This document shows positions 5,063 through 23,276 of a stretch of 46,783 nucleotides of DNA, piece by piece. Under the pieces are notes generated by a model that did no database searches, was not told the origin of the DNA, and saw only the letters and a list, made by a program, of their open reading frames with translations. This DNA comes from an uncultured Dehalococcoidales bacterium (lineage in GTDB: Bacteria; Chloroflexota; Dehalococcoidia; Dehalococcoidales; UBA2162). Position numbers and translations under genes: made by a program. The stretch's first letter is position 1. Each line of letters opens with the position of its first letter. Location of the stretch: assembly GCA_964463875.1 (NCBI GenBank), contig CAYXEG010000003.1:1-46783 (forward strand), given 5' to 3'.

Positions 5063-5065
5063 CGA

Positions 5066-6928: not shown

Positions 6929-7245
6929 ACGAACAGAACAACAAACAAGACAAACGCCTGACGGCAATCACGGTAACCGGACTGATACTGGTTTTCGCGC
7001 CGGTCAGTTCGGTGATAATCACGCTGATGTACTCGTTTTTCAGAAACATCGAGAAGCGGGTACAACCGGCAATCGGCCTTACCTCGGATATCGTTATTCA
7101 CAGCGGCATCGAGGCCGACACCTTTTTCACGGCGGCGGCGATTACCTTCGCCCTCGGGCTTATTGTTCTCTCATGGGTTGTTTTCAGGAAAGTCGCTGGA
7201 AAAGCGCATGATGAACAGGCAGCTCTACCTCCGGAAAGGGAGTGA
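6925..7245 (+). CDS. small membrane protein (2 predicted TM helices), 106 aa
   Basis: The ATG at 6925 overlaps the upstream TGA stop (ATGA coupling). Hydrophobic stretches ITVTGLILVFAPVSSVIITLMY and FFTAAAITFALGLIVLSWVVF. Confidence 0.55.
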   Translation: MNEQNNKQDKRLTAITVTGLILVFAPVSSVIITLMYSFFRNIEKRVQPAIGLTSDIVIHSGIEADTFFTAAAITFALGLIVLSWVVFRKVAGKAHDEQAALPPERE

Positions 7246-7251
7246 CGAACG

Positions 7252-8685
7252 ATGAAAAAAACTGCCATACTCTGGTTGCTGGCAACCCTGCTGACAGTAA
7301 CGGGTTCCTGCGCTCCTTCAATCAGTGAAACAGCCCCGCAAACCGGCTCCGCAAGCCCGCCTCCTGCAGAAAAGAATATGCAGGAACAGATGAACGAACT
7401 GGCAGAGAAGTACCGGGACGACCCGGAGAAGTTCGACGCGGCAGTCTACGCCCTTCATGAAGGCGTAACGGTCGAAGAAGCGGTACGAAGGTTCGAACTT
7501 TCAAATGACGCCGGTTCTCTCAAGGCGGTCATTGTCGAGAACGAAGAAACCTACGCCGGGAGCTGGATACAGCACCAGCCTGAGTATAAGTTTGTCTTTG
7601 CCTTCACTGAAAACGGCGAGGAGATAATCAGGAAGTACGTAAAAGAAGACTCTCCGCTCGCCGGGCTTATCGAGCTCCGCATCTTCGATACCAGCTACCG
7701 CGAACTCAAACAAGCCCAGGAGGAGACGATGCAACTTCTCAAAGACGTGAACCTCGATTTTTTCTGCCCTACCAGTATCGATATCAAAGAAAACACTGCG
7801 ATAGTCTACGTGAGCGACATCAAACTGTTCAACGAGATACTGAACAAGGCTGTAATTGAGCTCCCACCCCATGTCACCCCGGAAATTACTTACGAGCCTC
7901 TTGAAGAAGTCCCCTTTGACGTAACTCCGCCAGAGAAGACCGTTTACTTTCCGCAATTAATAATGCGCGGCGGGACTGCATTAAGCAGTTGTGCCAGAGA
8001 GCTTGTCCTCAAGGATGGTTACCTGCGCTTCGATGATGCCATAATTATCTGGCAGCCGGACTATTTTCTGAACGACGATAATGGGACTATCGAAGTGATT
8101 GACCGGGAGGGTAAGGTGGTGGCGCAGGAAGGTAAAGAGGTTTACATGACCTGCGGGGGACTGGCAACAGTCGAAGAAGTAAACAAATACCTGAAGGATT
8201 CGCTGCCGGACGACTTCGAAAGCCCTTTTATTATACAGGGCCACGGGACCAGGCTGAACCTGAATTTTTCATCCGAGCTCTTCAGTATCGAAATCACTCC
8301 TTATCAGGGACATGATTTCTATACATTCCATAAAAGGCCGCTGATCGATGAAAAGACCGGCCGCAGTGAGCTACTCACCGGGAAACTGCAAGCTAATTAC
8401 AGCGAGCAACATTTCATGAGGTATCCGGTTTTCATCGTTGACATGGACGGCTATGGAATGGAGTGTGCTGTCATCTGGCCGGCAGAGTATGAAGCGCGGA
8501 TACAGGACGGCACGTTCGAAATTGCAGATAAATCAGGGGCCGTTCTTGTCAAAAACGGACAAACGATTACGATTGAAGGCGAGGTTTTTCCTGGCATCAA
8601 CTCTCCGCTCGCCAGCCGCCTGTATGAAGAGCTACCCGACGGGTGCAAACAGCCTTACCTGGTTATTAAGAGGGTATTGAAGTGA
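7252..8685 (+). CDS. putative lipoprotein, 477 aa (family B)
   Basis: Signal MKKTAILWLLATLLTVTGSC. YFPQLIMRGG..LVLKDGYLRFDDAIIIWQPDYFLNDDNGTIEVIDREGKVV aligns with HFPQFIVRPV..LELKNGYLYAGEHIIIWLPGYFVHNNNGTIEVWDRDGTVV of the 5066 product. A second homologous block follows. Confidence 0.75.
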   Translation: MKKTAILWLLATLLTVTGSCAPSISETAPQTGSASPPPAEKNMQEQMNELAEKYRDDPEKFDAAVYALHEGVTVEEAVRRFELSNDAGSLKAVIVENEETYAGSWIQHQPEYKFVFAFTENGEEIIRKYVKEDSPLAGLIELRIFDTSYRELKQAQEETMQLLKDVNLDFFCPTSIDIKENTAIVYVSDIKLFNEILNKAVIELPPHVTPEITYEPLEEVPFDVTPPEKTVYFPQLIMRGGTALSSCARELVLKDGYLRFDDAIIIWQPDYFLNDDNGTIEVIDREGKVVAQEGKEVYMTCGGLATVEEVNKYLKDSLPDDFESPFIIQGHGTRLNLNFSSELFSIEITPYQGHDFYTFHKRPLIDEKTGRSELLTGKLQANYSEQHFMRYPVFIVDMDGYGMECAVIWPAEYEARIQDGTFEIADKSGAVLVKNGQTITIEGEVFPGINSPLASRLYEELPDGCKQPYLVIKRVLK

Positions 8686-8722
8686 AAGAACTGATTCAAA
8701 ACAAATAATGCCGGAGGGATAA

Positions 8723-8776
8723 ATGGAATACAGAAAAATGAAAAAACGCGCTCGTGCATCGAGAGGTCGTTCATGA
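8723..8776 (+). CDS. possible 17-aa basic upstream ORF (MEYRKMKKRARASRGRS)
   Basis: GGAGGG lies 5 nt upstream of the ATG at 8723. Its TGA overlaps the ATG of the 8773 gene (ATGA). It shares RKMKK and the nucleotides GAAAATGAAAAA with a second mini-ORF at 12010. It may be non-functional. Confidence 0.2.
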   Translation: MEYRKMKKRARASRGRS

Positions 8777-10167
8777 GAAAAATACTACCGATACTACTGC
8801 TGCTACTCATCGGGGTACCCTTTCTCGCCGGTTGTCCGGGGGCAATAGACGGCCGACCGCCGGAATACTCGGTGGCGAACCCGAGCCTGCTGACGCTGCC
8901 GAACAACTCCAGCATTTTCGTCAGCTACCAGGTCAACCGGGGGAATTCCGGGGAGACGTACCTTCAAAGGTTAGAATTGAACGGTGAAGCCCGATTCTGG
9001 GGTACCAACGGGCTGGAGTTAAGTACGAGCCAGTGGGGTTTCTACGGCAGCGACCGGGAATGCGCCGCGCTGATACCCGACAACGCAGGGAATCTCATCG
9101 CCGTCTACCCGCTCGATGACGGCCTGAAAGCGCAAAAACTGAACACGAAAGGTGATTCCATCTGGCCGGAAGGCGAAGTGCCGGTATCCGGGGAAAAAGT
9201 GTTACCGAACCGGTTCAAAGCAGTCAGCGACCGGGCGGGAGGCGCCCTTATCATCTCTGTTTCGGAAGAAGACCGCCTCACCCTTCGGAGAATAGATACT
9301 CATGGCGACCTGCTGTGGACAACCTCTCTCTCGGAGGAAGCGGACAGGTTCGATATCGCGGTCGATACGAACGGCACCGATTTCGTTATCTGGAAAGACC
9401 GGCCGCCATACAGCGAGGGGGATTTCTTCGTCCAGGTCGTTAATGCAAACGGTGCGATTGTCGGCGAAAACGGCGGATTGCGGCTGACCGACGAGAACAA
9501 CCCCGGGTCGTTCACGAATAATTTCGAAAACCGGATTGTTGCCGACGGCAGCGGCGGAGCGGTGGTTATCTGGGCGGAAGCGATTTTTACCGAAGACCGG
9601 GGCGGCATTACCGGCCACCGGCTGTTCGCCCAGCGGATTGACGGGCAAGGTGAACCTGTGTGGCAGGATGGCGGGCGGCTCGTGACCGGAAGCGACCGGA
9701 TACAAAATCCGCAGATTGTCGAAAGCGAGCCGGGAACGTTCCTGATTTTATGGTCGGATATACGGCGTATCTACGGGCAGAAGATTGACGCCTCCGGCAC
9801 CATCGCCTGGACCGGGGAAGGACGGGAACTGGCCCTGTCCGGAAGCGTCCTGTACTTCACCGTCGCCGGCGACGATGACGGCGGAGCGGTGCTCGCCTGG
9901 AATGACGAACGCCTCTGTGCCCAGAGAATAGACAGCAATGGTTCGAAGCTCTGGGGAGACGAAGGCATAGACGTTTCATCGGCTCCTCCCTACTGGGGAG
10001 AGTACTCGGTGCCGGCACGGGTTTCACCGGACGGCCGGGGTAACTTCATCATCGCCTGGGCATCAGGCAGCACCATCAAGGCGAAGACAACCTCATGGGT
10101 CCAAAAAATAAGCGCTCAGGGCGAACCGCTGTGGGGAAAAGACGGCGTCAGGCTCGGGCTGAAGTAA
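8773..10167 (+). CDS. putative lipoprotein with about 8 repeats of a G-x-x-x-W-G-x-x-G motif (beta-propeller-like; family C)
   Basis: Signal MRKILPILLLLLIGVPFLAGC (lipobox LAGC). Recurrent motifs: NGEARFWGTNG, KGDSIWPEG, HGDLLWTT, QGEPVWQDGG, SGTIAWTGEG, NGSKLWGDEG, QGEPLWGKDG. A paralogue lies at 22107-23093 on the minus strand. Confidence 0.75.
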   Translation: MRKILPILLLLLIGVPFLAGCPGAIDGRPPEYSVANPSLLTLPNNSSIFVSYQVNRGNSGETYLQRLELNGEARFWGTNGLELSTSQWGFYGSDRECAALIPDNAGNLIAVYPLDDGLKAQKLNTKGDSIWPEGEVPVSGEKVLPNRFKAVSDRAGGALIISVSEEDRLTLRRIDTHGDLLWTTSLSEEADRFDIAVDTNGTDFVIWKDRPPYSEGDFFVQVVNANGAIVGENGGLRLTDENNPGSFTNNFENRIVADGSGGAVVIWAEAIFTEDRGGITGHRLFAQRIDGQGEPVWQDGGRLVTGSDRIQNPQIVESEPGTFLILWSDIRRIYGQKIDASGTIAWTGEGRELALSGSVLYFTVAGDDDGGAVLAWNDERLCAQRIDSNGSKLWGDEGIDVSSAPPYWGEYSVPARVSPDGRGNFIIAWASGSTIKAKTTSWVQKISAQGEPLWGKDGVRLGLK

Positions 10168-10180
10168 AAGAAAGGAAATA

Positions 10181-10786
10181 ATGAAACGTTACCTGAATTA
10201 TCTACTGGCTGGCATTGGAATACTCATGGTTGTCGGGGGGTCGATATCCTGCCGAAGTGCAGGCATACCCAGCACTTCGACGAACAGTGATGTGCTTAGT
10301 TACCGGGGTTTTTACCTCAGCGCCGAAGAGGTCGGCCTGACTACCTTTACTCAAGGAACGGTATTCGTCAGGGGAGACAGGGATAACCCGGAGGAAATGA
10401 GGGTCCAGATTGTCGCCCGGGTAGAAATCGATACCGAGGATTTCGGCGGTGTCAGTTTCAATATCCCTCAGGGGTGGAAGGTGGCGACGGTGGTTTCCGA
10501 TTACCCCCAGGGAAACCCGGCTCCGGAAATCTACACGGTCAGCCTGCAAACCGCTGATGAAACGGTGACCTGGCCGGTGATTGTCGAGGTCGGGCGCACC
10601 TCACACATAGCCGGGCAAGCTAACCCGCAGGGCGGAACAGGTACCCTGATTATCGAGCTGTCTCCGGCGTTATCCGGCAGGGAACTCCCGGAAGACATCG
10701 ATATTCTCATCGCCGCCGGCAGTAAAATACCCTCCACTGTCGATGCCGTCCACATGACCCTCAGTATTCCCTTGAACGAGGGCTAA
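10181..10786 (+). CDS. putative secreted protein or lipoprotein, hypothetical
   Basis: N-terminal hydrophobic segment LLAGIGILMVVGGSISC. Tightly packed in the co-directional cluster. I did not recognise a family. Confidence 0.6.
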   Translation: MKRYLNYLLAGIGILMVVGGSISCRSAGIPSTSTNSDVLSYRGFYLSAEEVGLTTFTQGTVFVRGDRDNPEEMRVQIVARVEIDTEDFGGVSFNIPQGWKVATVVSDYPQGNPAPEIYTVSLQTADETVTWPVIVEVGRTSHIAGQANPQGGTGTLIIELSPALSGRELPEDIDILIAAGSKIPSTVDAVHMTLSIPLNEG

Positions 10787-10814
10787 CGTATGAATAGAGG
10801 ACAATGAAGACGTT

Positions 10815-11993
10815 ATGACTTTACGAATAAAGAGTATTACCCTGCTTTTCCTTATCCTGCTGGTCTGTTTCCTGGCGACCGCCTGCAGCGGGACGGACTC
10901 CGAAGGAGCGGAATCTCCCCCGGCTGTCGAAAACCGGCCGTGTCTGGCGCCCGGTGACGATTTTGTCGCCGGCGTCGAAGTCACCGATGCCTGGTGCACT
11001 GCCGGTGACGAATCGGCCTTTGTTTTTCGCTTCAGCTTGAACAACCTGAAAAACGAACCCGTCGAGGTAACCTGCACCTGGACGCTCAACGAGCCGATGT
11101 CGGACCAGCCCTTTTACGAAGGCAGCGCCGAAGCTTCCCTTCCCGCCTCAGGCAAGGAAACCATCGAACTGCCGATAGCGGTAACGAGGTTGTACGACAC
11201 AAGGTTTTATGTCATGTACGTCTGCGTTTTCCAGGACGGCGTTCAGACCGGCTATTACCGGGAGCAAAAAAGCACCTATGACTGGGATTACCGCACCGAA
11301 CCGCCTGTCCGGCGGGAATCGCAGCCGGTCTACCGGCACATCTACACGGACACACTGGTAGAAAGAATGCCTGACGGCACATACAAGGTGACTCTGAATG
11401 ACCTGTTCTTTCTGCCGCCGGGCAGGACCGCTCCTCTGCCGCTGGAAGATATCTCGGTGTCTTTCGATAATGACTCGTTTCCTGCGCCGTTAACAGCCGT
11501 TAACGGGGTGAAACCGGCATACGATTTGGCATTTTCCGATACCGATGGAAACGGCGAACTCTCTGCCGGTGACTACCTGACGGTTAGCGGAGAGGCGAAA
11601 AATCGCTCGATTCGGTTCGAGTACCGCAACGAGCCATCAATCCATTTTTACTCTGACGAAGTCATCGAAACGGAGCAGGCAGGAGCCATCAGAATCGGGA
11701 CTGTCGAGTATCGCCATGTTTCCGATTCGACGGTCCAAGTGAAATTCGAGGTGACGTCCGAAAGCCCGTCACCCAGGGTAAACCTCCGGATTATCCACCC
11801 CGGAGAAGGCGGCTACGGCGAGACGGGGGCTGATTCCGGAACCCCGGTAACCGAAGGCAACACCGGCACCTGGGAAACCGTCATCGACTATTCGAGACAC
11901 AAGGAACGGTCGGATGACACACCGTTGTACCTGCTCATCTTCGCCGGAGACGGCACGAACGAGGTGCTCCATTACGTGTGCGAACTGCCCTGA
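10815..11993 (+). CDS. putative lipoprotein, hypothetical
   Basis: Signal ITLLFLILLVCFLATAC (lipobox-like ATAC). Contains DTDGNGELSAGDYLTVSG, a motif reminiscent of surface or adhesin-like beta domains. Confidence 0.65.
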   Translation: MTLRIKSITLLFLILLVCFLATACSGTDSEGAESPPAVENRPCLAPGDDFVAGVEVTDAWCTAGDESAFVFRFSLNNLKNEPVEVTCTWTLNEPMSDQPFYEGSAEASLPASGKETIELPIAVTRLYDTRFYVMYVCVFQDGVQTGYYREQKSTYDWDYRTEPPVRRESQPVYRHIYTDTLVERMPDGTYKVTLNDLFFLPPGRTAPLPLEDISVSFDNDSFPAPLTAVNGVKPAYDLAFSDTDGNGELSAGDYLTVSGEAKNRSIRFEYRNEPSIHFYSDEVIETEQAGAIRIGTVEYRHVSDSTVQVKFEVTSESPSPRVNLRIIHPGEGGYGETGADSGTPVTEGNTGTWETVIDYSRHKERSDDTPLYLLIFAGDGTNEVLHYVCELP

Positions 11994-12009
11994 TAGAGAG
12001 GCTCGAGCA

Positions 12010-12069
12010 ATGAACCGGAAAATGAAAAAGCTGATAACAACAGGAGTAGCGCTGCTGTTGCATGAATAA
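12010..12069 (+). CDS. possible 19-aa mini-ORF (MNRKMKKLITTGVALLLHE), signal-peptide-like remnant or leader peptide
   Basis: GAGAGG lies upstream. It looks like a truncated signal peptide and sits in the 94-nt gap before the LuxE-like gene. Confidence 0.15.
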   Translation: MNRKMKKLITTGVALLLHE

Positions 12070-12087
12070 GAAAAAGGTACCGATGGT

Positions 12088-13485
12088 ATGGATATAAAAG
12101 ACATCCTTGCACAACTGACGAAGGTTTCGCAGGACTGGGCGTCAGGTAAGAAGTATGACGCGGTAAGGGCTGGAGAATTGAGGCGGGAAGCGATTCGGCT
12201 GAACCACCGTCATTACCTGAAAACCATACCTCTTTACCGAAAGCTGGCTGAAGAGGAAGGCTGTGACGGGGAGACGGACATCGATACCCTTAAAAAGAAG
12301 CTGATGCTCTCCGCCGATATCTTCAAGAGTTACCGGCAGTCGTGGCTCGACAACAATGATTATGAAAGTATGACCGGCTGGCTCACCGGGCTGTTTCACC
12401 GGGAAATCAAAGTCGATACCGAAGGAGTGACGAGTATCGACGGCTGGATTGACCGGCTCGGCATGGCCGGCGTGCACGTCGTCTACAGTTCGGGGACGTC
12501 CGGAACCTTCTCCTTCGTTCCCCGCGAAAAAGAGGACTGGCAGCGGGCGTCGCACTTCAACACTTCCTGCCTGGCCCCCCTGCTGGCGCCGAAGATACTG
12601 GGGAATTCAATCAAAGGTAAACTGGCGAAATCGGCTCTCCGTCTGAAGTCCGCCGACCGGCTCGGCAGCCTGGCCGGAAGCGGCGGGCTGACCGATTTCG
12701 AGGCGGTGTTCCTCGGCTTCCGGGGAGGCCGGATGGGAAACCAGGCATTGATAACCGAACTGGCGCCGTTATTCGGCAGGGTTTCGTACCTCTACGATAT
12801 CGAAATCACCGGCAGCGCCCTGCGTGCTCTTACCCGGGGTGCCCGGAACGACGAAGAACGGAAAGCGGTCAAGGCGCTGCAGGATGAAGCTGTCGGGCGC
12901 AGCAGAGAAAACTGCCGCCGGATAACCGAAAACCTTAACGCCTCCGCCGAAGCCGGACGAAAGGTGTTTATATTCGGAGCGCCGTACCAGTTCAAGGAAC
13001 TGGGCGAATTCATATCCGGGAGTAACCGGCAACCAGCTTTGAAAAAAGGCAGCCTTGCCCTGTTCGGCGGCGGCTGGAAGAGCTTCGCCGGAGAGGCGGT
13101 TGACCGAGCCTCGCTCGTCGCTCTGATGGGCGATTCGCTGAACCTTCCGGAAGCAATGATACTGGAAGGCTATTCGATGACGGAAAGCAACGTCCTGACC
13201 CTGCGCTGCGGTCACGGCAGATTTCATATTCCGCCGGTCATCGAACCGGTGATATTCGATGAAGAACTGAACCCGGTCGAGGGCGACGATATCCGGGGAA
13301 TCTACGGATTTCTCGACCCGATGGCCGTTTCGTACCCCGGTTTCCTTATCACCAATGACGTCGTCCGGCTGGTGAACGGTACCTGCCCCTGCGGCCTGAG
13401 CGGGTACGCAGTGACGGAAATCGGGCGCCTTGCCGGGAGCGAAGTAAAAGGCTGCGGCGGCATCATGAGTTCAATGCAGGTATGA
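12088..13485 (+). CDS. acyl-protein synthetase, LuxE family (adenylate-forming)
   Basis: 465 aa. Nucleotide-binding motif VVYSSGTSGTFSFVPR. Overall LuxE-like layout. A Cys in KGCGGIMSSMQV lies ten residues from the C-terminus, where (from memory) the acylated Cys of luminous-bacterial LuxE sits. Confidence 0.7.
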   Translation: MDIKDILAQLTKVSQDWASGKKYDAVRAGELRREAIRLNHRHYLKTIPLYRKLAEEEGCDGETDIDTLKKKLMLSADIFKSYRQSWLDNNDYESMTGWLTGLFHREIKVDTEGVTSIDGWIDRLGMAGVHVVYSSGTSGTFSFVPREKEDWQRASHFNTSCLAPLLAPKILGNSIKGKLAKSALRLKSADRLGSLAGSGGLTDFEAVFLGFRGGRMGNQALITELAPLFGRVSYLYDIEITGSALRALTRGARNDEERKAVKALQDEAVGRSRENCRRITENLNASAEAGRKVFIFGAPYQFKELGEFISGSNRQPALKKGSLALFGGGWKSFAGEAVDRASLVALMGDSLNLPEAMILEGYSMTESNVLTLRCGHGRFHIPPVIEPVIFDEELNPVEGDDIRGIYGFLDPMAVSYPGFLITNDVVRLVNGTCPCGLSGYAVTEIGRLAGSEVKGCGGIMSSMQV

Positions 13486-13498
13486 CGGGAAGCGCACT

Positions 13499-15025
13499 AT
13501 GAAAGAACTTCGCGACAGGTACGGATTACTGAAGAACGATAACGGCGTCATACGGGTGCCGTTTCTCATCAAAGGCAGGCTGTCCGTTCCTCCGGAAATT
13601 CCAAAAGAACAGATAGAGCAGGCTTTTGCGGGGGAAGAAAAGGACGCCGTCTACGCCCGGCTGCCGGAAGCGCAGGTTATCCGGGAAAGGATTATCGACC
13701 GCGAGACGATGAAGTATACCGGCGATTACCTCTATTCGGTCATGCCGGTTTTTTCGCCCGAGGACATCATCGAAACGGATACCTCGAAACCGGCGGATGA
13801 ACTGTATTCGCTGCCGGTCGAATCAATCCTCGACTATCTGGAAGAAATTATGGCGGTTTTGGAGAAAGATTTTCTCATTGCCGTGGAGGTACTGGCGCTC
13901 TACCGGAAAACATCCGAGTACCCGGATGTTTTCATCGAGCAGTGGCTTGCCGGCATGCAATCGGTTTTCAGTCGGGAACAGGCCCGGCAGATGATTGACA
14001 ACGAGCTGTCATTCGGAGGGATACCGGGCAGCGCTTTCCTCGAAGGCTGGGTGAACACAAACAGCGCCGGCGGAGCGACGGTACGGGCGATGCCCACCCG
14101 GCAACTGCACATCACCGCCGGAAACGTGCCGGAAGTACCGCTCCTTTCGGCGGTACGGGCGATTCTCACCAAGTCCTGTTCAGCGGTGAAACTGCCCTTC
14201 GGGGCGGTGCTGCCGGGAGCGTTGTTCGCCCTGGCGGCGGCAGCTGTGCCCGACCACCCGATTACCCGCAACCTTTCGTTCGTCTACTGGCAGGGCGGCG
14301 ACCGGGCAATCGAAGACCGGCTTTTCTCATCGGGAGTCTTCGACCGGATAATCGTCTGGGGTTCTCCGGAAGCGGTCACCTCGGTGCAATCGAGAGCGCT
14401 CTTCACCAGAATCGTCACCCTCAACCCGCGCTACGGCGTCAGCCTGATTGGGAAAGAAGCGTTCGGCAACCTCGAAGAAGCGGCAACCCTGGCGGCGGCG
14501 GACGTCATGATATACGACCAGAAGGCCTGTACCTCCTCGCTGGTCCAGTACGTGGAAGGGACGGAGGAACAGGCGAACGAGTACGCTGAAATACTCCGGA
14601 ACATCCTGGCGGAATGGGACGCGAAAGCCCCCGGGTTCATCGCTCCGTCAGCCCTCGGACGGATAAAGCGGCTCCGGCGGGGGAAGTACCTCAGCGCCGG
14701 CTGGCACATCAACACGAAAGACGGTGATTTTTCATCGGGCGTAGCGGTCGTTCCCGGCGAGTTCGATATCCTCGACCATCCGATGAGCCGGCTGGTGGTA
14801 GTGAGGCCGGTGCCGAAGCTGGAGGAAGCTTTGAACTACCTCAGCCGGTACGTCTCAACGGCCGGGGTGTACCCCGAAGAACGCCGGCTCGAACTCAGGG
14901 ACAGGATAGCCGCGAGAGGGGTTTCGAGCGTCCTGCCGCTGGGAAGCTGCGACCGGGCATGGGCAGGCATGCCGCACGACGACATGCTGGTGCTGAGCGA
15001 ACTTATCGACTGGAAGAACGGATAA
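13499..15025 (+). CDS. acyl-CoA/acyl-protein reductase, LuxC family (aldehyde-dehydrogenase-like)
   Basis: 508 aa. LHITAGNVPEVPLLSAVRAILTKSCSAVKLP matches the LuxC AGN-x-P motif region. Candidate catalytic Cys in YDQKACTSS. Immediately follows the LuxE-like gene. Confidence 0.7.
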   Translation: MKELRDRYGLLKNDNGVIRVPFLIKGRLSVPPEIPKEQIEQAFAGEEKDAVYARLPEAQVIRERIIDRETMKYTGDYLYSVMPVFSPEDIIETDTSKPADELYSLPVESILDYLEEIMAVLEKDFLIAVEVLALYRKTSEYPDVFIEQWLAGMQSVFSREQARQMIDNELSFGGIPGSAFLEGWVNTNSAGGATVRAMPTRQLHITAGNVPEVPLLSAVRAILTKSCSAVKLPFGAVLPGALFALAAAAVPDHPITRNLSFVYWQGGDRAIEDRLFSSGVFDRIIVWGSPEAVTSVQSRALFTRIVTLNPRYGVSLIGKEAFGNLEEAATLAAADVMIYDQKACTSSLVQYVEGTEEQANEYAEILRNILAEWDAKAPGFIAPSALGRIKRLRRGKYLSAGWHINTKDGDFSSGVAVVPGEFDILDHPMSRLVVVRPVPKLEEALNYLSRYVSTAGVYPEERRLELRDRIAARGVSSVLPLGSCDRAWAGMPHDDMLVLSELIDWKNG

Positions 15026-16060
15026 ATGAAAACAAAGCTGACTATTTGCATTCTGGCGATACTGCTGGCCGGTTCGGCGGGTTGTACCAAGGATGTTGAT
15101 ACAGCCGCAACAAACGATGATGAATCATCCGCCGGCGGCTGGGAACTGGTCTATGAAGCCGATAACGGCAGCCAGCTAAGAGATCTCTATTTTTCCGACG
15201 ACAATAACGGCTGGGCATGCGGCAGCGCCGGACTGCTCCTCCACACCCCGGACGGAGGGGATACCTGGTACCAGGTCGAAACCGGGACGGAGAACGACCT
15301 GACCTGCCTGCATTTCTTCAATGATAAAAAGGGGGTAATTGCCAGTCTTCAGGCAAGCATCGGCGCCACGTCTGACGGCGGGAAAAACTGGCAATGGCAG
15401 AAACCGGAACTACTCGGCAAAGGCGGTTACCTGGACGTCTTTTTTACCGACCGGCGGAACGGTTGGCTGGTCAGCAACGTCGGGACAATACTCCGGACGA
15501 GAGACGGCGGGGCAACCTGGGAAAAACAGGAAAGCGGGACGACCCGGCACCTGGCGGCCGTCTTTTTCATCGATGCGAAAACCGGCTGGATAATCAGCGA
15601 GCGTTCCGTCCTCAGCACCACCGACGGCGGGAAAAACTGGAATAAAACACAACCGGACGTCTCCCTGGCAAGCGGTACCTTCTTTACCGATATCTACTTT
15701 ATCGATAAGCAGGAAGGCTGGATTACCACCACCGCCATGGCAAGTTCCCTGTGGGAAGCGACGGCAACCCTGCTTCATACCACCGACGGCGGCAGAACCT
15801 GGGCGGCTGCGCCCTCCCCGCCGGAAAAATGGCTGAAAGCCGTCATCATGACCGACAACACGACCGGCTGGCTGGCCGGCAGCGAGCACCTCTCCTACAC
15901 GAATGACGGAGGCGCAACCTGGACGGCGCGGCTGGACAGCGGCGGCGACCCGTTCGTCGATATCGTCATCACCGAAAACAACCGGCTCTACGCCCTCACC
16001 TTCACGGGTAAAATCTACCGGCACCCTGATGCCCTGCGGGTGGGAAAAACCGGAGTATAG
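15026..16060 (+). CDS. lipoprotein with six BNR/Asp-box (DGG-x-TW) repeats, Ycf48-like/sialidase-like beta-propeller
   Basis: Lipobox LAGSAGC. Repeats: PDGGDTW, SDGGKNW, RDGGATW, TDGGKNW, TDGGRTW, NDGGATW. Its ATG directly abuts the LuxC TAA stop (15023-15028 TAAATG). Confidence 0.8.
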   Translation: MKTKLTICILAILLAGSAGCTKDVDTAATNDDESSAGGWELVYEADNGSQLRDLYFSDDNNGWACGSAGLLLHTPDGGDTWYQVETGTENDLTCLHFFNDKKGVIASLQASIGATSDGGKNWQWQKPELLGKGGYLDVFFTDRRNGWLVSNVGTILRTRDGGATWEKQESGTTRHLAAVFFIDAKTGWIISERSVLSTTDGGKNWNKTQPDVSLASGTFFTDIYFIDKQEGWITTTAMASSLWEATATLLHTTDGGRTWAAAPSPPEKWLKAVIMTDNTTGWLAGSEHLSYTNDGGATWTARLDSGGDPFVDIVITENNRLYALTFTGKIYRHPDALRVGKTGV

Positions 16061-16101
16061 GAGAAAAGCCAATCGTTTACGCGACGAGGCTGGAGAAGTA
16101 A

Positions 16102-16632
16102 ATGAAAAAAATATCGATAATTCAGATAGCCGCCGGAGCATTGCTGATTGCTTCCTACTTTATATTCATCAGACTGGTGCAGCCGGGATATTACAGGATG
16201 GAAATTCTGGATATCAACGGAGTAATCATCGGCGGTTCTATAGGCAGCCCGTCATGGGCGGTTACGCCGGCGCTGGTTATCTGGACGGCCGGTTACCCGC
16301 TGCTTGGAATACTGGTGACCGGCTGCGGGGTATCGCGGCTCATTAAAAACTACCGGGGACAGGCAACAAGGAAGCTGGATATCGCCCAGGTTGTTTTCGG
16401 TGCTCTCCTCCTGGCCTTGATGATTATGTTCGTGACAAGCTATGAGCCTCACTGGCCGAATTACGCATCAACAAAGGTAATACAAGGTTTCCCCGGAGCC
16501 GTCGAAGTCCGCCATAACCCCGGATGGGTTGCCGGGATGAACGCGTGGAAAATAGGCATGTTCTGCCTCGGCCCGGTCATTACCGCCAGCGGGGGATGGA
16601 CTCTATTGAAATCGAGAAAGATTGAACGATGA
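16102..16632 (+). CDS. integral membrane protein, hypothetical (about 5 TM)
   Basis: Multiple hydrophobic helices (IIQIAAGALLIASYFIFI, ALVIWTAGYPLLGILVTGCG, VVFGALLLALMIMFV, IGMFCLGPVITASGGW). Its stop overlaps the next ATG (ATGA at 16629). Confidence 0.65.
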   Translation: MKKISIIQIAAGALLIASYFIFIRLVQPGYYRMEILDINGVIIGGSIGSPSWAVTPALVIWTAGYPLLGILVTGCGVSRLIKNYRGQATRKLDIAQVVFGALLLALMIMFVTSYEPHWPNYASTKVIQGFPGAVEVRHNPGWVAGMNAWKIGMFCLGPVITASGGWTLLKSRKIER

Positions 16633-17747
16633 AAGTAACGTTGTATTCGCTGATTCTGATGCTATTAACGGTTGCAGGTATCACCACCGCCTGCACCCCC
16701 CCGGAACAGCCGTACCTGATGCCGGTCACGGACTTTTCTTTCACCGGTTTGTGGGATGAGATTCAGGAAACCACGGGGGCAAGCGGCAACCAGACGCACC
16801 TTCAGTCCTTCGATTTGCGAATCAAGAATGATAAAGTAATGTCCGGTTCTGCCAGATTCAGCTCTATCGATAACGCGGGGCATGATATCTTTTACAGGGT
16901 TGATACGGATACCAGGGGAAAACTGCAATGGAACGGCCGGGGCACGAAAGATATTCTACCGCCCATAGGCCTCAGGTATGACCCGGCAAAAACCTTCGCC
17001 GAACTTGACCGTCTCGGGGTAGAGGCAGTTATCGATAGCGCCCGGAGTGTCGGCGTAAGAATCGAGAATATCTACAATGAACGGCAGTATGACTACGCTG
17101 ATATGTTCCGGCTGGATGACGGTGAATTACTGCCGCTGCGGGAAGCTTCTTTCCCGAAGGACGCCGTGGCAGTACAGATTCAGGTTGACCGGTCCTACGA
17201 GCGGGAAGAAGCGGCTCCTTTCGCCCTCGGCAGATTCAGAGTGACGAGCGAATGGTGGTTCACCGGGAACGACCTCGAAAAGGCCGATTCGGTCGTATTC
17301 GCGAAAAACCGGCAGGGGCCGGAATTCGTCGGTTTCCTCAAAGGCGTTTATGAGGCATTGCCGGAAGGCTGGGAAATGAGCCTCAGTACCCATGAAGGAC
17401 ACATGAATCCGCCGGAGGGACTGGAAGAACCGCTTTTCGTCCTGATTTTCGAAGATACGGTCAATTCGTTCACCCTGCCGGCCGACCCGGCGAACACTCC
17501 GATTGTTCCCGGCCTGCGGCTCTTTTTCTACGACATCGCTGAAAAAGAAGCCCGCATGGAAAAAATCGAACAGCAGCAGCAATACTCGTGGGATATTCCG
17601 GTTTACTACGACGAAAGTCCTTTGTACCTTGCCGTCACCTCGCCGGTGTATATCAATTCCGGCCATTACGGAGAGGAAGAAATAACGTATTACCGGGTGC
17701 TGGAGAAAGCGCTGAAGGAATTTTTCGATGGAGAAAGAACCGAATAA
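16629..17747 (+). CDS. putative lipoprotein (family D)
   Basis: Signal LILMLLTVAGITTAC. FTGLWDEIQETTGASG.. and YADMFRLDDGELLPLREASFP align with the next gene product. Confidence 0.7.
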   Translation: MKVTLYSLILMLLTVAGITTACTPPEQPYLMPVTDFSFTGLWDEIQETTGASGNQTHLQSFDLRIKNDKVMSGSARFSSIDNAGHDIFYRVDTDTRGKLQWNGRGTKDILPPIGLRYDPAKTFAELDRLGVEAVIDSARSVGVRIENIYNERQYDYADMFRLDDGELLPLREASFPKDAVAVQIQVDRSYEREEAAPFALGRFRVTSEWWFTGNDLEKADSVVFAKNRQGPEFVGFLKGVYEALPEGWEMSLSTHEGHMNPPEGLEEPLFVLIFEDTVNSFTLPADPANTPIVPGLRLFFYDIAEKEARMEKIEQQQQYSWDIPVYYDESPLYLAVTSPVYINSGHYGEEEITYYRVLEKALKEFFDGERTE

Positions 17748-17765
17748 CATAGCGAGGAGATACCG

Positions 17766-18479
17766 ATGAAACGAAAACCCGGACGTATACTACTGGCGGG
17801 GCTGTGCCTGCTGTCAATCATTGTTGTCACTTTTATTCCGGGCTGCAACAACATTCAGTGGTCTTCTCAAATAAACAGCTCCATACATGAACTCACTCTT
17901 ACAGAGTTATGGAATACCATCGCAGCTACAACAGCTATCCAGGAACCGAGCGCAGAAATGGGGACGTTTTCGATGAATGTCGAGCCGGATGGTGAACTCT
18001 CATTTTTGGATTTCACCTTCTCGGGAAGAAATAACAACGGAAAACCATGCGTGTATTTCGTCGGTTTCGGGCACAGGAGCAGGATTTCCGTAAAAAGTTA
18101 TGAAATCGATGATATTATCGTCAGCCGGCATCCGGCATCGGTGTTCGAGGAAATCGATATGTACGGACTGGACTCCATTGAAACGGGTGAGGGAGGATTA
18201 AGGATGATTATCTCATTTCAAGCCGGTAGTCTCGTTTACCGAAGAAGCGAGGCTGACCTGTTTCATCTTGAAAAAGGAGAACTTCTGCCTTTGGAGGAAA
18301 TTATGTTCAGCGGTCAAAACCAGCATTGTACCGTAAGCCTGTTGAAACTTGCCCCGAATAAACCGGTATCCACGACAGCCGCGGCTCCGATGCTGCCGGG
18401 TGAAAGAGCTAACGAAATATGGTTTCTCGATGAAGATATCAGCCTGGCCGAGACGGTTGTTTACTGGAATGAGAACTGA
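17766..18479 (+). CDS. putative lipoprotein (family D)
   Basis: GAGGAG RBS. Signal ILLAGLCLLSIIVVTFIPGC. LTELWNTIAATTAIQ and EADLFHLEKGELLPLEEIMFS are homologous to the 16629 product. Confidence 0.7.
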   Translation: MKRKPGRILLAGLCLLSIIVVTFIPGCNNIQWSSQINSSIHELTLTELWNTIAATTAIQEPSAEMGTFSMNVEPDGELSFLDFTFSGRNNNGKPCVYFVGFGHRSRISVKSYEIDDIIVSRHPASVFEEIDMYGLDSIETGEGGLRMIISFQAGSLVYRRSEADLFHLEKGELLPLEEIMFSGQNQHCTVSLLKLAPNKPVSTTAAAPMLPGERANEIWFLDEDISLAETVVYWNEN

Positions 18480-18578
18480 ATCACTATGTCCGTGGAGAAG
18501 AAGGTGAGAATAGGATATCCCGGAAGGCGGGCCCCAAAATCCCTCTTCGGAGGTGTTGAGTAAGGTTGATGGTTCTGC

Positions 18579-18613
18579 TTCTCCCTTTAAAAGGGAGAAT
18601 GAGAGGGATTTTT
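18579..18613 (+). terminator. rho-independent terminator candidate / REP-like element copy C
   Basis: Hairpin TTCTCCCT (18579-18586) / AGGGAGAA (18592-18599), followed by TGAGAGGGATTTTT. An outer arm AAATCCCTCT at 18537-18546 can pair with AGAGGGATTT. Confidence 0.5.
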
Positions 18614-18664
18614 GTGTACCTGCGATATTTTATGCGCGTTCCTTCCGGAGGTTGATAATCGATT

Positions 18665-20140
18665 ATGAAAAGAATAGTGTTGAAAATTCTATTGCTGGCA
18701 GCCGCCATGGCGCTGTTGTTCACCGGGGCTTCCTGTAACCGGACCTCCGGCGATGCTTTTAACGAAGATAACCTCATACCGGAAAAGGTACTCGCCGGAC
18801 TTCCGGTCTATCCTGATGCAGCCATGACCACGGAAGATGGGACCGGGTTCAAGCCGTTTTCAACGCCGCTGTCACCTCAGGTCGAAGGCCGGCCGCCGGA
18901 AATCGTCTACGAGACCGTATCCCGGCAGTATACCTCGGAAGCTGAACCGGATTCGATTCTGAAATGGTACCGGAGCAAACTGACCGGCAAAGGTTATCAG
19001 GTCTATTCCGAGACGAGCTATTTCGACTTCGACGACTTTAATATACACAACAAAACAGAAACTTCGACAACACAACAGATACAAAGAGCGGATATTATTC
19101 ACGTAAGCGGTGAAGTCCATAGTTTAGGATTCTATCGTCCCAAGTTAACGCTCATCAGTATCGAAGTGCATGCCTGTTCAACAACCGGGAAAACAATCTT
19201 CGCCGTCATCGTCAACCGGGATACGACCACTCCGGCTGAACCGGAGGTAATGAAGCTGTCAACCGGTATAATTTCGTATTCCGGCTTCAAGCAGGAGGCG
19301 AGTGTCCGTATCGGCGAACCGAGAAAGGATGCTCCGGTCATTCTTACCATAGCTAATAGCGGAGACGTCAGGTACGGCACTCAGCAGTTCGATGTATCCG
19401 GTCGTGAGTTGTCCGAAATTCCGGAAAGCGACCTGGAACCGGCATCGATTCCCACGAACAGGCTCCTGCCGGCAGGTACGGCCGGTATTTACCAGATAGT
19501 ACATCTGAAAGACCGTTACGAAGACAGGCTGCTCTTCGAAGCGAAGAAAAGCAATGACGGGCCGCCGGATTACCTGATTACGGACAACGCCGGAGCAGTT
19601 CTCTATACCCTGCCGATGAACTACCTGATCACCCGGTATAGATACGAAGCCTGCCTGGTCGAAAACGGCCTGGCGGTTTACTACGGCACCAATGTACTGA
19701 ATTCACGACTGAAGAAGTATTCGTATGACGGAAGTATCGTCTGGTCGGCAGAGGTTCCCCTGACAGGCAGTCCCCACCTCAGCCGAATTCAGGATAACGG
19801 CAGCGAACTGCTGGCACTCCGGATACAGAGCAGTGATAATGAACATTATGTCGGCTACTTCACCGCCGAAAACGGCACGATGTTTCTAGAAAACAAGTTT
19901 ACTGACGACAGGCGGGTTCAGGTAACCGATAAAGCAGGTTACTACTATCTCTTTACCGAATGGCCGGAATACTACGAAATGGCGGTTCCGCCGGGAAGAA
20001 TCAGTTTATTCTATGGTAACGAAGAAGCAGCCTATGCGGACGTATCCGAAGGCATCTACTACTTCGCTGCCTCGCCTGACGGCCGCTACTTCGCGGTGGT
20101 GACGAGAAACAGGTTGTCGATATTTTCGTTTACGGAATAA
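18665..20140 (+). CDS. putative lipoprotein, 491 aa (N-terminal GLPVYP module; C-terminal beta-propeller-like region)
   Basis: Signal ILLLAAAMALLFTGASC. VLAGLPVYPDA..SILKWYRSKLTGKGYQV parallels ILSGLPVYPGS..DLIDWYEGYFKESGFHF in the 5066 product. A TolB-like ASPDGRYFAVV motif lies near the C-terminus. Confidence 0.7.
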   Translation: MKRIVLKILLLAAAMALLFTGASCNRTSGDAFNEDNLIPEKVLAGLPVYPDAAMTTEDGTGFKPFSTPLSPQVEGRPPEIVYETVSRQYTSEAEPDSILKWYRSKLTGKGYQVYSETSYFDFDDFNIHNKTETSTTQQIQRADIIHVSGEVHSLGFYRPKLTLISIEVHACSTTGKTIFAVIVNRDTTTPAEPEVMKLSTGIISYSGFKQEASVRIGEPRKDAPVILTIANSGDVRYGTQQFDVSGRELSEIPESDLEPASIPTNRLLPAGTAGIYQIVHLKDRYEDRLLFEAKKSNDGPPDYLITDNAGAVLYTLPMNYLITRYRYEACLVENGLAVYYGTNVLNSRLKKYSYDGSIVWSAEVPLTGSPHLSRIQDNGSELLALRIQSSDNEHYVGYFTAENGTMFLENKFTDDRRVQVTDKAGYYYLFTEWPEYYEMAVPPGRISLFYGNEEAAYADVSEGIYYFAASPDGRYFAVVTRNRLSIFSFTE

Positions 20141-20149
20141 CCAGAAAAC

Positions 20150-20179
20150 TTGACGAATACTACCGGAATGGACTATTGT
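20150..20179 (+). promoter_or_regulatory. weak promoter candidate (TTGACG-18 nt-TATTGT)
   Basis: Hexamers at 20150-20155 and 20174-20179 in the 108-nt gap before the glycine-zipper genes. Confidence 0.25.
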
Positions 20180-20248
20180 TTCAGTAAGGTATTGGTTATC
20201 AGTGAAGTACCGGACAATACAATGATGACCGTACCGGAGGTGAATGGT

Positions 20249-20614
20249 ATGAACAAAAACAGGTTACGCAGTTTCCTCTATCTTCTGGTTTTCATGCATT
20301 TTTTCGACCCGTTCGCCTACAAGACAACCGTTGAAGGTGAGGCCCGGATAAAAGACCGTGACCCGCGCGACCCGAACCAGGCGCCAAAGCCGGGAAAAGG
20401 CGACAGCTACCTGCTGGGGGCGACGTTTCTCGGCATCATCCTCGGCGGCGTCGCCGGATTCCTCATCGCCTATCACGGTTTCGGCAACCACATGGTAGTC
20501 CTCGGCATTTTTGGCGGGATACTGGCCGGAGGCCTGGCCGGCATCTCTATCGGAAGCCGGCTGAAAAAGAAGAAACAGCAGGAAGCCGACGACGGACCGA
20601 GTGCAGGAGTATAG
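20249..20614 (+). CDS. glycine-zipper membrane protein (family F), 121 aa
   Basis: GGAGGTG RBS lies 6 nt upstream of the ATG at 20249, which I prefer over the TTG at 20150. G-x-x-x-G-rich helices LGATFLGIILGGVAGFLIA and LGIFGGILAGGLAGISIG are followed by KKKKQQ. Confidence 0.6.
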   Translation: MNKNRLRSFLYLLVFMHFFDPFAYKTTVEGEARIKDRDPRDPNQAPKPGKGDSYLLGATFLGIILGGVAGFLIAYHGFGNHMVVLGIFGGILAGGLAGISIGSRLKKKKQQEADDGPSAGV

Positions 20615-20620
20615 AAAACA

Positions 20621-21007
20621 GTGGTACAATACAGTCAGACCATGACCGGCGTACCCGGAATCGCCCTCCACCTCTATCAGAATCCTTTCCAGTTCCGGGA
20701 GACGGTAGAGCGGGAAACCCTGGCTTCAGGCGGGCGTGGTAACGGCAAAAGGCCGCACCGGGACCCACGGGACTATTGGGTATATATCGGGGCGGTCGCC
20801 GGTATCATTGTCGGCTGTACCGCCGGAGCGATAATCGGAGCGTCAACCGCCGGTCTCGGCGGTATATTCCTGGGAATTGTCGCCGGGATGTTCGTCGGCG
20901 GGCTGGGTGGCTCATGGGTCGGCGAGCAGATTAAAAAGAAAAAATACGCCCGTAAAAAAGTAAACAGGAAAGAGACGGCGCCCGGCAAGGGGCCGTTCAT
21001 CGGATAA
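20621..21007 (+). CDS. glycine-zipper membrane protein (family F paralogue)
   Basis: IGAVAGIIVGCTAGAIIGASTAGLGGIFLGIVAGMFVGGLGGSWVG is followed by QIKKKKY. It shares a DPRD motif with the preceding gene. The start is uncertain (GTG 20621 or ATG 20642). Confidence 0.55.
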   Translation: MVQYSQTMTGVPGIALHLYQNPFQFRETVERETLASGGRGNGKRPHRDPRDYWVYIGAVAGIIVGCTAGAIIGASTAGLGGIFLGIVAGMFVGGLGGSWVGEQIKKKKYARKKVNRKETAPGKGPFIG

Positions 21008-21010
21008 CGC

Positions 21011-21865
21011 ATGATAGAAATTGGGGTAAATCCGGTCATATTCGGTACCGTCCGGTGGTACGGGGTGCTGGTGGCGCTCGGTATTGCCGTGCTGGTAGCA
21101 TGGTTAATCTGGCACGTCAGGAAAGACCCGTACAAGCGAATTACGCCCGACATGGTGCTCATCGCAGCCATAGTCGGTATCCCGGCCGGGGTGATTGTTT
21201 CGAGGGCGATTCACGTTATCGATTTATGGAGCTACTACAGCCGGTTTCCGGGAGAAATCATCGGCGGCGACGGCCTGACCATCTGGGGAGCGATTCTCGG
21301 CGGCACCCTCGGCATCCTGATAACGAGCCGGTTCACCAAATTCGATTTCGGCTATTTCTCAGATATCGTGGCCCCCGGCCTGATACTTGCCCAGATAATC
21401 GGGAGAATCGGCTGCACCATCAACGGCTGCTGCTACGGCGACGAATGTTCGCTCCCCTGGAGTATTATCTACACCCACCCAGAAACGTACGGGCCGATGA
21501 CTTACGCTGTTCATCCGACGATGGTTTACGAGATTATTTTCCTGGCGGTATCATTCGGCATTATCATGTTCCTGCGGGGGCGCATTAAACCGGACGGCTC
21601 CCTCTACATGATTTACCTCTGCCTCTACTCGGTTTGGAGAATCATCAACGGCTTCCTCAGGGAAGGGACCGATTTCCTCTTCGGCCTCCATCAGGCGCAG
21701 ATAATCGGCATCCTGCTCCTCCTCATCATCATCCCGATACTGGTCATGAAAACCCGCTGGGGCAAGCCGGAAGTACCGGTAATGGCAGCGGATGATGCAC
21801 AGGACGAAACAGTACCCGAACTGCCTCCGGCTGAGAAGGAAGGGAATAGCGAGGGAGAAGAGTAA
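21011..21865 (+). CDS. lgt: prolipoprotein diacylglyceryl transferase
   Basis: Typical Lgt features: N-terminal IFGTVRWYGVLVALG, GLTIWGAILGG, and ILAQIIGRIGCTINGCCYG. Multi-TM. An acidic C-terminal tail is present. Confidence 0.85.
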   Translation: MIEIGVNPVIFGTVRWYGVLVALGIAVLVAWLIWHVRKDPYKRITPDMVLIAAIVGIPAGVIVSRAIHVIDLWSYYSRFPGEIIGGDGLTIWGAILGGTLGILITSRFTKFDFGYFSDIVAPGLILAQIIGRIGCTINGCCYGDECSLPWSIIYTHPETYGPMTYAVHPTMVYEIIFLAVSFGIIMFLRGRIKPDGSLYMIYLCLYSVWRIINGFLREGTDFLFGLHQAQIIGILLLLIIIPILVMKTRWGKPEVPVMAADDAQDETVPELPPAEKEGNSEGEE

Positions 21866-21908
21866 GGGACGACGGAAATTCGGGCGAGAAGTAACAACGT
21901 CCGTGTAT

Positions 21909-21953
21909 CCCCCTCACCCTGACCATCTCCCGGGATAGTGAGAGGGAGTTTTC
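21909..21953 (+). terminator. terminator candidate / REP-like element copy B downstream of lgt
   Basis: CCCTCAC (21911-21917) pairs with GTGAGAGGG (21938-21946, one bulge) around the palindromic TCCCGGGA, followed by TTTT (21949-21952). Confidence 0.4.
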
Positions 21954-22039
21954 TCAGATTACTATCTGCCGCTATCTGCTTGTTTGGTCAGTCTACAATG
22001 AAGTGAAGCAGCGTTACCGTTCCCCATTTATCGCCCGCC

Positions 22040-22100
22040 ACGAGCAGATACACCACATATAGAACGGGTAAGCGAGTGAAAGGACAAGGCAGTGTATGAA
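22040..22100. repeat. imperfect direct repeat R1 (pairs with 23165-23222)
   Basis: Shares ordered blocks with R2: ACATATAGAAC (11/11), TAAGCG, TGAAA, GAC, AGTG, ATG. Weaker similarity extends about 15 nt to the left. Confidence 0.5.
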
Positions 22101-22106
22101 AGCGTA

Positions 22107-23093: not shown

Positions 23094-23164
23094 ATATCGT
23101 CGTCCTTCGAATAACACCCATTCCCTATATGAATCAAGCCCTATAGTATCACAAATAATACGGC

Positions 23165-23222
23165 AACACACATACGCAACATATAGAACAAATAAGCGTA
23201 TGAAAAGACAGTGAGGTATGCT
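23165..23222. repeat. imperfect direct repeat R2 (pairs with 22040-22100)
   Basis: See R1. R2 sits at the transition to low-GC DNA. Confidence 0.5.
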
Positions 23223-23276
23223 ATAAAGAACATTTATGATTAAGCCCTATTTTTTAGAAAACAGCTTATTTGAATT

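Follow-up and report, generated by a model that had tools for sequence, protein, structure and literature searches.

The LuxE-LuxC gene pair

The stretch of DNA considered here, hereafter the window, comprises 46,783 nucleotides from an uncultured Dehalococcoidales bacterium of the phylum Chloroflexota (contig CAYXEG010000003.1 of assembly GCA_964463875.1), and the subject of this report is a pair of adjacent forward-strand genes within it whose products are distant relatives of LuxE and LuxC, the enzymes that together make fatty aldehyde for light emission in luminous bacteria. The first, at 12088..13485, encodes a LuxE-type acyl-protein synthetase of 465 amino acids (PF04443), a PaaK-like adenylate-forming domain in which a short tail with a cysteine takes the place of the C-terminal subdomain. 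The second, at 13499..15025, encodes a LuxC-type acyl-thioester reductase of 508 amino acids, recognized by its match to PF05893 and by its sequence and structural matches to the LuxC chain of the Photobacterium phosphoreum complex (7xc6_A). The TGA of the LuxE-like gene is followed after 13 nucleotides by the ATG of the LuxC-like gene, the TAA of which directly abuts the ATG of a third gene on the same strand (15026..16060), encoding a BNR/Ycf48-like β-propeller lipoprotein of 344 amino acids with six Asp-boxes; both junctions were read from the DNA. The open reading frames (ORFs) of the pair are long and match hidden Markov models of their families with E values of 8e-20 and 4e-44, and are therefore not chance ORFs.

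A preliminary description of this region, made from the DNA letters without database searches, had reported the coordinates, the motifs and the abutment of the LuxC stop and the propeller start, all of which were borne out by the ORF list, by script and by the DNA itself. It had also described the pair as an orphan, and Pfam scans of 40 ORFs across the window indeed revealed neither luciferase (PF00296; luxA, luxB) nor any LuxD-type family. Both proteins of the pair are devoid of a signal peptide and of transmembrane segments.

The LuxE-like protein

PF04443 (LuxE) is the sole Pfam match of the 465-residue protein, at 71.4 bits against a cut-off of 24.9 (E=8e-20) and covering residues 283-462 only. 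A sequence search of the PDB returned only the LuxE chain of the P. phosphoreum complex, 7xc6_E, with E=5e-13, or 4e-24 when a profile of the subfamily was used. In that complex, LuxE (PpLuxE) has no C-terminal subdomain but instead a tail of about 20 residues that carries Cys364 in the motif TRxxKGCxLS, and Lys238 (of GGGWK) and Arg355 are needed for both adenylation and thioesterification, the K238A variant being inactive (PMC9157457).

The counterparts of these residues are all present in the window protein, where Lys238, Arg355 and Cys364 align with K331, R447 and C456, respectively. A script located the P-loop SSGTSG, the adenylation site aligned to PpLuxE SSGTSG, at residues 134-139 (12487..12504), the GGGWK loop at residues 327-331 (13066..13080) and KGCGG at residues 454-458. 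Cys456, the tenth residue from the C terminus (…KGCGGIMSSMQV), is the predicted acyl-accepting cysteine of a flexible C-terminal tail, and its codon lies at 13453..13455 (DNA ggc tgc ggc). Across 77 sequences of the subfamily, S134, G136 and T137 of the P-loop are invariant, as are G327, G329, W330 and K331 of the GGGWK loop (G328 is found in at least 90%), the hinge arginine R447 and Cys456, which aligns to the cysteine of the TRxxKGCxLS motif. The chain stops 18 residues past the hinge arginine and therefore ends, as in LuxE, without the C-terminal subdomain of the ANL enzymes.

An AlphaFold2 model of the protein is of good overall confidence (predicted local distance difference test, pLDDT, 86; predicted template-modelling score, pTM, 0.86), with low confidence at an inserted segment, residues 173-199, and in the Cys-bearing tail; for the latter, the low pLDDT is compatible with a mobile arm. 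The top Foldseek matches of the model are PaaK-type ANL enzymes, with E values of about 1e-10 and TM-scores of about 0.5, and the closest folds among them activate aryl or short acyl groups (PaaK1/2, 2-hydroxyisobutyryl-CoA ligase, NatL2 and ClxA); BT_0428, a further PaaK-type ligase, is also among the closest solved folds. The cryo-electron microscopy LuxE chain of 7xc6 is outside the top 50 matches; the paper describing that structure itself relates LuxE to the PaaK-type adenylate-forming branch (PMC9157457).

The Chloroflexota subfamily has further conserved cysteines, namely an invariant C-x-C-G at residues 433-436 (13384-13395) and an invariant Cys374 (13207-13209). The CxCG motif also occurs in three distant, short proteins of the LuxE family (P0343, P0353 and P0367) and is missing from Photobacterium LuxE. 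It might bind a metal or have a structural role.

The LuxC-like protein

The LuxC acyl-thioester reductase family corresponds to Pfam PF05893 and to cd07080. For the 508-residue protein, PF05893 is the sole Pfam match, at 151.6 bits against a cut-off of 21 (E=4e-44), and aligns residues 105-504 with positions 4-400 of the 401 in the model. Once again, the PDB sequence search returned a single match, 7xc6_A (E=1e-18). P. phosphoreum LuxC (PpLuxC) works via Cys296, with His442 and Asp443 nearby (PMC9157457; residue numbers in that paper are the PDB chain index plus 11, Cys296 being chain residue 285), and these three residues align with C344, H493 and D494. By script, the motif AGNVP was found at residues 207-211 and QKACTSS at residues 341-347. 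The codon of Cys344, the predicted catalytic, acyl-enzyme cysteine, lies at 14528..14530 within YDQKAC, which aligns to YDQQAC of PpLuxC. In 39 sequences of the subfamily, Q341, C344 and D494 are invariant and H493 is present in at least 90%.

The AlphaFold2 model (pLDDT 89) has PpLuxC (7xc6_A) as its best Foldseek match, with E=2e-23, whereas the best generic aldehyde dehydrogenase (ALDH), GapN, follows with E=6e-18, some five orders of magnitude behind. The TM-scores are similar, at 0.68-0.72 for PpLuxC and 0.71-0.75 for ALDHs, so that the margin of LuxC over ALDH lies in the E-value only. At the position of the ALDH general base, our reading of the alignment gives TLNP in the window protein and KFGP in LuxC, with no glutamate of the ELGG type in either, an arrangement that would suit a reductase better than a hydrolysing dehydrogenase.

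The preliminary description had assigned the two proteins to LuxE and LuxC rather than to PaaK and a generic aldehyde dehydrogenase, and had likened the cysteine near the C terminus to the acyl-accepting cysteine of LuxE in luminous bacteria. The assignment is upheld by the sole matches in Pfam, in NCBIfam and among PDB sequences. Moreover, the acyl-accepting and catalytic cysteines have their aligned counterparts in the Photobacterium complex and do not vary within the subfamily.

A conserved cassette of uncultured Chloroflexota

A search with the LuxE-like protein found 326 relatives, the named ones mostly from Dehalococcoidales/Dehalococcoidia, and some of these Dehalococcoidales proteins are labelled 'acyl-CoA reductase' by NCBI. 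When GTDB was scanned with one genome for each species, 47 loci were obtained, all in metagenome-assembled genomes and almost all from Chloroflexota (Dehalococcoidales/Dehalococcoidia and Anaerolineae). Among 1.84 billion cluster representatives, searched exhaustively, 934 relatives reached E ≤ 1e-3 and 65 reached E ≤ 1e-30. Judged by these sequence searches, the pair belongs to a modest-sized subfamily, part of a broader family and distributed mainly among uncultured Chloroflexota.

Gene neighbourhoods were surveyed in 55 sources by crude ORF calling and clustering of the proteins. LuxE was present in 52 of these and LuxC in 50, while any other cluster occurred in 11 at most. By script, LuxE was immediately followed by a same-strand LuxC for 42 of 54 LuxE calls; layout strings placed E before C in every locus that reached past LuxE with intact calls, usually across a gap of 9-19 nucleotides and with a modal gap of 13-19. 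The adjacency of E and C is thus essentially universal in the roughly 50 related loci, and no other conserved partner emerged. The preliminary description had named membership of other enzyme subfamilies, cysteines that fail to align and the lack of conserved linkage elsewhere as outcomes that would count against its assignment; for the pair itself, what was found is the reverse of each, the E-C linkage being conserved in about 50 other genomes.

Same-strand genes within 60 nucleotides of the pair were taken as operon-linked, and across all loci these show no functional theme. They belong to unrelated Pfam families, including an amidohydrolase, a solute-binding protein, CCG/Fe-S, a nitroreductase, GNAT, IstB and DUF2569, and no alcohol dehydrogenase, wax synthase, acyl carrier protein (ACP) or glycosyltransferase was found among them in the approximately 50 loci.

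A separate observation concerns nine loci of one Dehalococcoidales clade (L001, L002, L003, L012, L013, L017, L019, L021 and L022), in which LuxC is followed, one to three genes further on, by a heliorhodopsin gene (PF18761), for example at 14339-15100 in L001 and 13894-14658 in L002, inside a RadA-IspD-IspF-CysS block.

The proposed reaction and its substrate

What has been established above is family membership, fold, conservation of the catalytic residues and a conserved gene pairing. Since the conserved cassette keeps the whole LuxC-LuxE catalytic apparatus, acid-to-aldehyde reduction would be its most likely function, and we consider it probable that the pair is a cytoplasmic, self-contained reductase of carboxylic acids to aldehydes, of the LuxE/LuxC type, dependent on ATP and NAD(P)H and operating through a Cys-to-Cys hand-off of the acyl group. 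Homology to the Photobacterium complex is the basis of this inferred chemistry, which would proceed in four steps. The LuxE-like protein would adenylate a carboxylic acid with ATP by means of its SSGTSG P-loop, Lys331 and Arg447. The acyl group would then be transferred to its own Cys456, carried on the flexible 18-residue tail that replaces the C-terminal subdomain. In the third step, the tail would swing into the LuxC-like partner and pass the acyl group to Cys344. Finally, NAD(P)H would reduce the thioester on the LuxC-like protein and the aldehyde would be released. A hydrophobic, fatty-type acid would be the most likely substrate and serves as the default.

Several observations weigh against this proposal. 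In NCBIfam, the LuxE-like protein matches only LuxE, at 60.3 bits compared with an equivalog cut-off of 550 (NF052244), and the LuxC-like protein only LuxC, at 105.3 bits compared with 750 (NF052251). Both scores are far below the cut-offs and, on this sequence evidence, the proteins are therefore to be regarded as members of the families rather than as orthologues of the luminous enzymes, so that substrate specificity cannot be transferred from them. The N-terminal 280 or so residues of the LuxE-like protein, its acid-binding part, are highly divergent and lie outside the Pfam match; likewise, a profile of the subfamily aligns strongly with PpLuxE only over residues 270-464. Further towards the N terminus, where the same profile was compared with the PDB in search of homology along the whole of that half, it gave only weak collinear matches, P-loop included. 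The protein is also about 90 residues longer than PpLuxE, owing to about 30 additional N-terminal residues and an insertion of about 60 that includes residues 173-199. In the LuxC-like protein, residues at the entry to the cleft differ from those of PpLuxC (Ser166→Val, Thr169→Leu, Phe297→Thr, Gln402→Ser and Phe436→Ala). In no locus is the pair linked to a LuxD-like supplier of free fatty acid or to an enzyme that consumes aldehydes, and a literature search for LuxC/LuxE in Dehalococcoidia or Chloroflexi found no paper on the subfamily and no experimental data for its members.

The divergent N-terminal half of the LuxE-like protein and the changed entry to the LuxC cleft would leave room for a different acid. 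The same chemistry might accordingly be directed at a non-fatty substrate, such as a short hydroxy acid, a dicarboxylic acid or an aromatic acid, of the kind proposed for RfbN or hinted at by the PaaK-like fold. This we consider unlikely, although it is the alternative that fares best. In addition to the divergence and the cleft-entry changes, it can draw on the aryl- and short-acyl-activating enzymes that are the closest folds of the LuxE-like model, and on precedents in the LuxE domain of RfbN (as cited in PMC4772473) and the luxC/luxE genes of the Aeromonas flagellin glycosylation island (PMC7874193). However, a PaaK-like fold is common to genuine LuxE and does not discriminate between substrates, and no ACP, extra ligase, alcohol dehydrogenase or glycosyltransferase stands beside the pair in about 50 loci.

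The abutting propeller and the lipoprotein island

The gene that abuts LuxC encodes a protein with a Pfam PSII_BNR match (1e-28), six Asp-boxes of the form [ST]xDxGxxW (at residues 74, 115, 158, 198, 252 and 292) and a lipobox, LAGSAGC, the last two located by script. Its NCBIfam Ycf48 score of 115 bits does not reach the cut-off of 326 and, given also its lipobox and its Dehalococcoidales host, it is therefore a generic Ycf48-related BNR propeller and not the Ycf48/HCF136 photosystem II assembly factor; more than 2000 Ycf48-related relatives were found. It is probably co-transcribed with the LuxE-LuxC pair. The preliminary description placed emphasis on this gene, an emphasis that did not survive comparison with other genomes, since no homologue of the propeller is present in 56 related loci totalling 718 kb. 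The only other co-occurrence of propeller and LuxC is on a contig with 88-90% DNA identity to the window; the closest propeller relative lies on this contig, which therefore represents the same locus in a sister strain. Near the next propeller relatives, of 49% and 38% identity, LuxC/LuxE were not found. The propeller is thus a local neighbour of the pair and not a conserved partner, and its abutment is an accident of gene order that gives no guide to function.

The sister-strain contig (L057, 1-7079) corresponds to window positions 14366-17728 and has many apparent frameshifts. It has two extra stretches of approximately 1.1-1.3 kb, one separating the BNR gene from a membrane-protein gene and the other ahead of the gene related to the lipoprotein gene at 16629. 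These differences show the region to be in flux even among close relatives.

More widely, the pair is inserted in a run of forward-strand genes (3986..21865) made up of 10 lipobox ORFs, three membrane proteins and, at its end, lgt. The lipobox ORFs, all within 3986-20140, start at 3986, 5066, 7252, 8773, 10181, 10815, 15026, 16629, 17766 and 18665, and are followed by two small membrane proteins and lgt (21011-21865; PF01790, 1e-45). The island as a whole (3986-23171 and 23793-24401) is unusually dense in lipoprotein genes, and almost none of the 10 lipobox ORFs has a Pfam match. Paralogous pairs are apparent within it (5066/7252, 8773/22107 and 16629/17766), as are two further lipobox ORFs on the opposite strand.

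In relatives with 58-73% LuxE identity (L006, L055, L007, L010 and L018), lipobox genes again border the pair, some of them from non-homologous families. In L006 and L055, non-homologous lipoprotein genes occupy the same positions as in the window, which suggests that the lipoprotein genes of the island turn over rapidly. A single gene family, the lipoprotein family of the 16629/17766 paralogues, is shared by the regions downstream of LuxC in more than one lineage. Its members lie at 16629-17747 and 17766-18479 in the window, 9215-11036 in L006, 12757-14181 in L007, 9645-10346 in L010 and 5624-6406 in L018. The family has no meaningful PDB match and no match in a copy of Pfam that did not contain PF27293; precomputed tables place its relatives in PF27293, 'AF_1575'.

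The preliminary description had noted the embedding of the pair among lipoprotein genes and had suggested that it might supply an aldehyde- or alcohol-derived lipid for the envelope. A version of this idea specific to the lineage of the window, in which the pair is tied to the lgt-ended island and supplies such a lipid for the envelope or for lipoprotein modification, is in our view improbable. It would account for the position of the pair in a tight same-strand run with 10 lipobox genes and lgt at the end, for the direct abutment of the LuxC stop and a lipoprotein start, and for the lipobox flanks of the five relatives named above, with the 16629/17766 family recurring downstream. The embedding itself is real in the window, but on the LuxE tree only two small lineages, neighbours of each other, have the lipoprotein-rich setting with this family; the sister loci L008, L009 and L016 and all other clades lack it. 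Furthermore, no other locus has lgt near the pair, the 56 related loci contain no homologue of the BNR gene, and LuxE and LuxC are proteins of the cytoplasm, while lipoproteins mature at the membrane. The best explanation of the pattern is that a variable island was inherited from a common ancestor within one lineage, which needs no functional link and in which the lipoprotein genes are neighbours and not parts of the system.

A more specific proposal, that the cassette was recruited into this fast-evolving, lgt-ended island in one Dehalococcoidales lineage to provide a reduced (for example, ether-linked) lipid for the anchoring or modification of surface lipoproteins, is given very little credence here. 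If true, it would represent a lipoprotein or envelope lipidation chemistry undescribed in bacteria.

The preliminary description had also raised acyl transfer to protein. Stated more fully, the pair would be an acyl-activation and transfer device rather than a reductase, with LuxE loading LuxC and LuxC acylating a protein, thiol or lipid. Such a device would accommodate the conservation of the two cysteines that carry the acyl group, the formal status of LuxE as an acyl-protein synthetase and the lack of a linked enzyme that consumes aldehydes; it is nonetheless highly unlikely, because the LuxC-like protein retains the Rossmann-type architecture of ALDHs in full and has the NADPH-dependent PpLuxC as its best structural match, and no conserved candidate acceptor gene lies nearby. 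Neither this role nor that in envelope lipids found support past local synteny.

Finally, the production of retinal from retinoic acid, or of another chromophore aldehyde, for the heliorhodopsin of the nine loci described above is scarcely credible and was rejected as plain synteny within one clade: retinal is an aldehyde and the gene is close to LuxC, but it belongs to the RadA-IspDF-CysS housekeeping block of that single clade, is absent from the window and from all other loci fetched, and no feature of the sequences points to a polyene substrate.

Other features of the window

Scans for tRNA genes and Rfam families found no match in the window. Promoter and terminator consensus scans of positions 3000-22500 gave counts at chance level and hence no usable operon boundaries. 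An ORF with DEAD and Helicase_C domains (635-1987) overlaps, in another frame, an ORF at 1860-2909 with HRQ1 winged-helix and MrfA Zn-binding domains. These two ORFs resemble the halves of a single MrfA/Hrq1-type helicase interrupted by a frameshift; either a sequencing error or decay to a pseudogene could account for the break. Positions 22000-28000 have a G+C content of 0.38-0.45, compared with 0.50-0.60 elsewhere, and the ORFs there (for example, 25300-26466, 388 amino acids) have no Pfam matches; this segment may have been horizontally acquired.

Significance

Orphan LuxC/LuxE homologues outside luminous bacteria, with undefined roles, were already known (PMC7874193, PMC4772473), so that the remark in the preliminary description that the roles of non-luminous LuxCE pairs are poorly defined was a fair one and the novelty of the present findings is modest. 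What is new is the delineation of a Chloroflexota-centred subfamily, the recognition of a stand-alone cassette with intact catalytic residues and the finding that the BNR linkage is incidental. Should the proposed chemistry prove true, many uncultured Dehalococcoidales and Anaerolineae would hold a compact, ATP-driven route from carboxylic acids to aldehydes. The identity of the substrate would inform the lipid or organic-acid metabolism, so far poorly known, of these bacteria, which are abundant in the subsurface and in digesters, and the pair might yield new carboxylate-reducing enzymes for biocatalysis.

Comparison with known systems

With PaaK-type ligases, the LuxE-like protein shares the N-terminal adenylation domain and the P-loop. 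PaaK enzymes, however, have a C-terminal subdomain with the catalytic lysine and transfer the acyl group to coenzyme A, whereas the window protein has a Cys-bearing tail and its lysine in GGGWK. No sequence-level match to PaaK families was found in Pfam, NCBIfam or the PDB. The combination of a PaaK-type coenzyme A ligase and a generic ALDH was considered as an identity for the pair and rejected on the lack of such a match, the absence of the C-terminal subdomain and the status of LuxC as best structural match.

Among non-luminous members of the families, the orphan LuxE homologue AS87_03730 of Riemerella anatipestifer (Bacteroidota) is known only from its expression and a virulence phenotype (PMC4772473). 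It resembles the window protein in being a LuxE-family member of a non-luminous bacterium and differs in phylum, a comparison drawn from its published description.

Other non-luminous homologues occur in surface-glycan loci. The polar flagellin glycosylation islands of Aeromonas carry luxC/luxE, and a flagellin glycan with a liposugar component has been suggested (PMC7874193), while RfbN of Vibrio cholerae O1, a LuxE-domain protein, is cited as being implicated in making the tetronate component of the O-antigen (in PMC4772473). Like these, the Chloroflexota proteins are LuxE/LuxC members acting outside bioluminescence and of unproven biochemistry. Unlike them, they are not accompanied in the loci examined by ACP, 3-oxoacyl-ACP reductase, an extra AMP-ligase and glycosyltransferases, as luxC/luxE are in the glycan loci.

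From the LuxC-LuxE system of luminous bacteria itself, represented by the Photobacterium complex, the pair differs in several respects. The host of the window pair is an anaerobic, non-luminous member of the Chloroflexota; luxA, luxB, luxD and luxG are all missing from beside the pair; and the order is E-C with a 13-nucleotide gap, whereas luxCDABE has luxC and luxE at opposite ends. Identity between the LuxC-like protein and PpLuxC is only about 21%, similarity to LuxE is recognizable only in the C-terminal 180 residues, and the invariant CxCG sets the Chloroflexota LuxE-like subfamily apart from Photobacterium LuxE. Against this stands a common plan. The same two families are paired, and the adenylation domain again lacks its C-terminal subdomain and ends in a KGC tail with the cysteine ten residues from the end. 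The P-loop, the lysine of GGGWK, the hinge arginine and the tail cysteine of the one partner, and the cysteine of YDQxAC and the His-Asp pair of the other, have all been kept.

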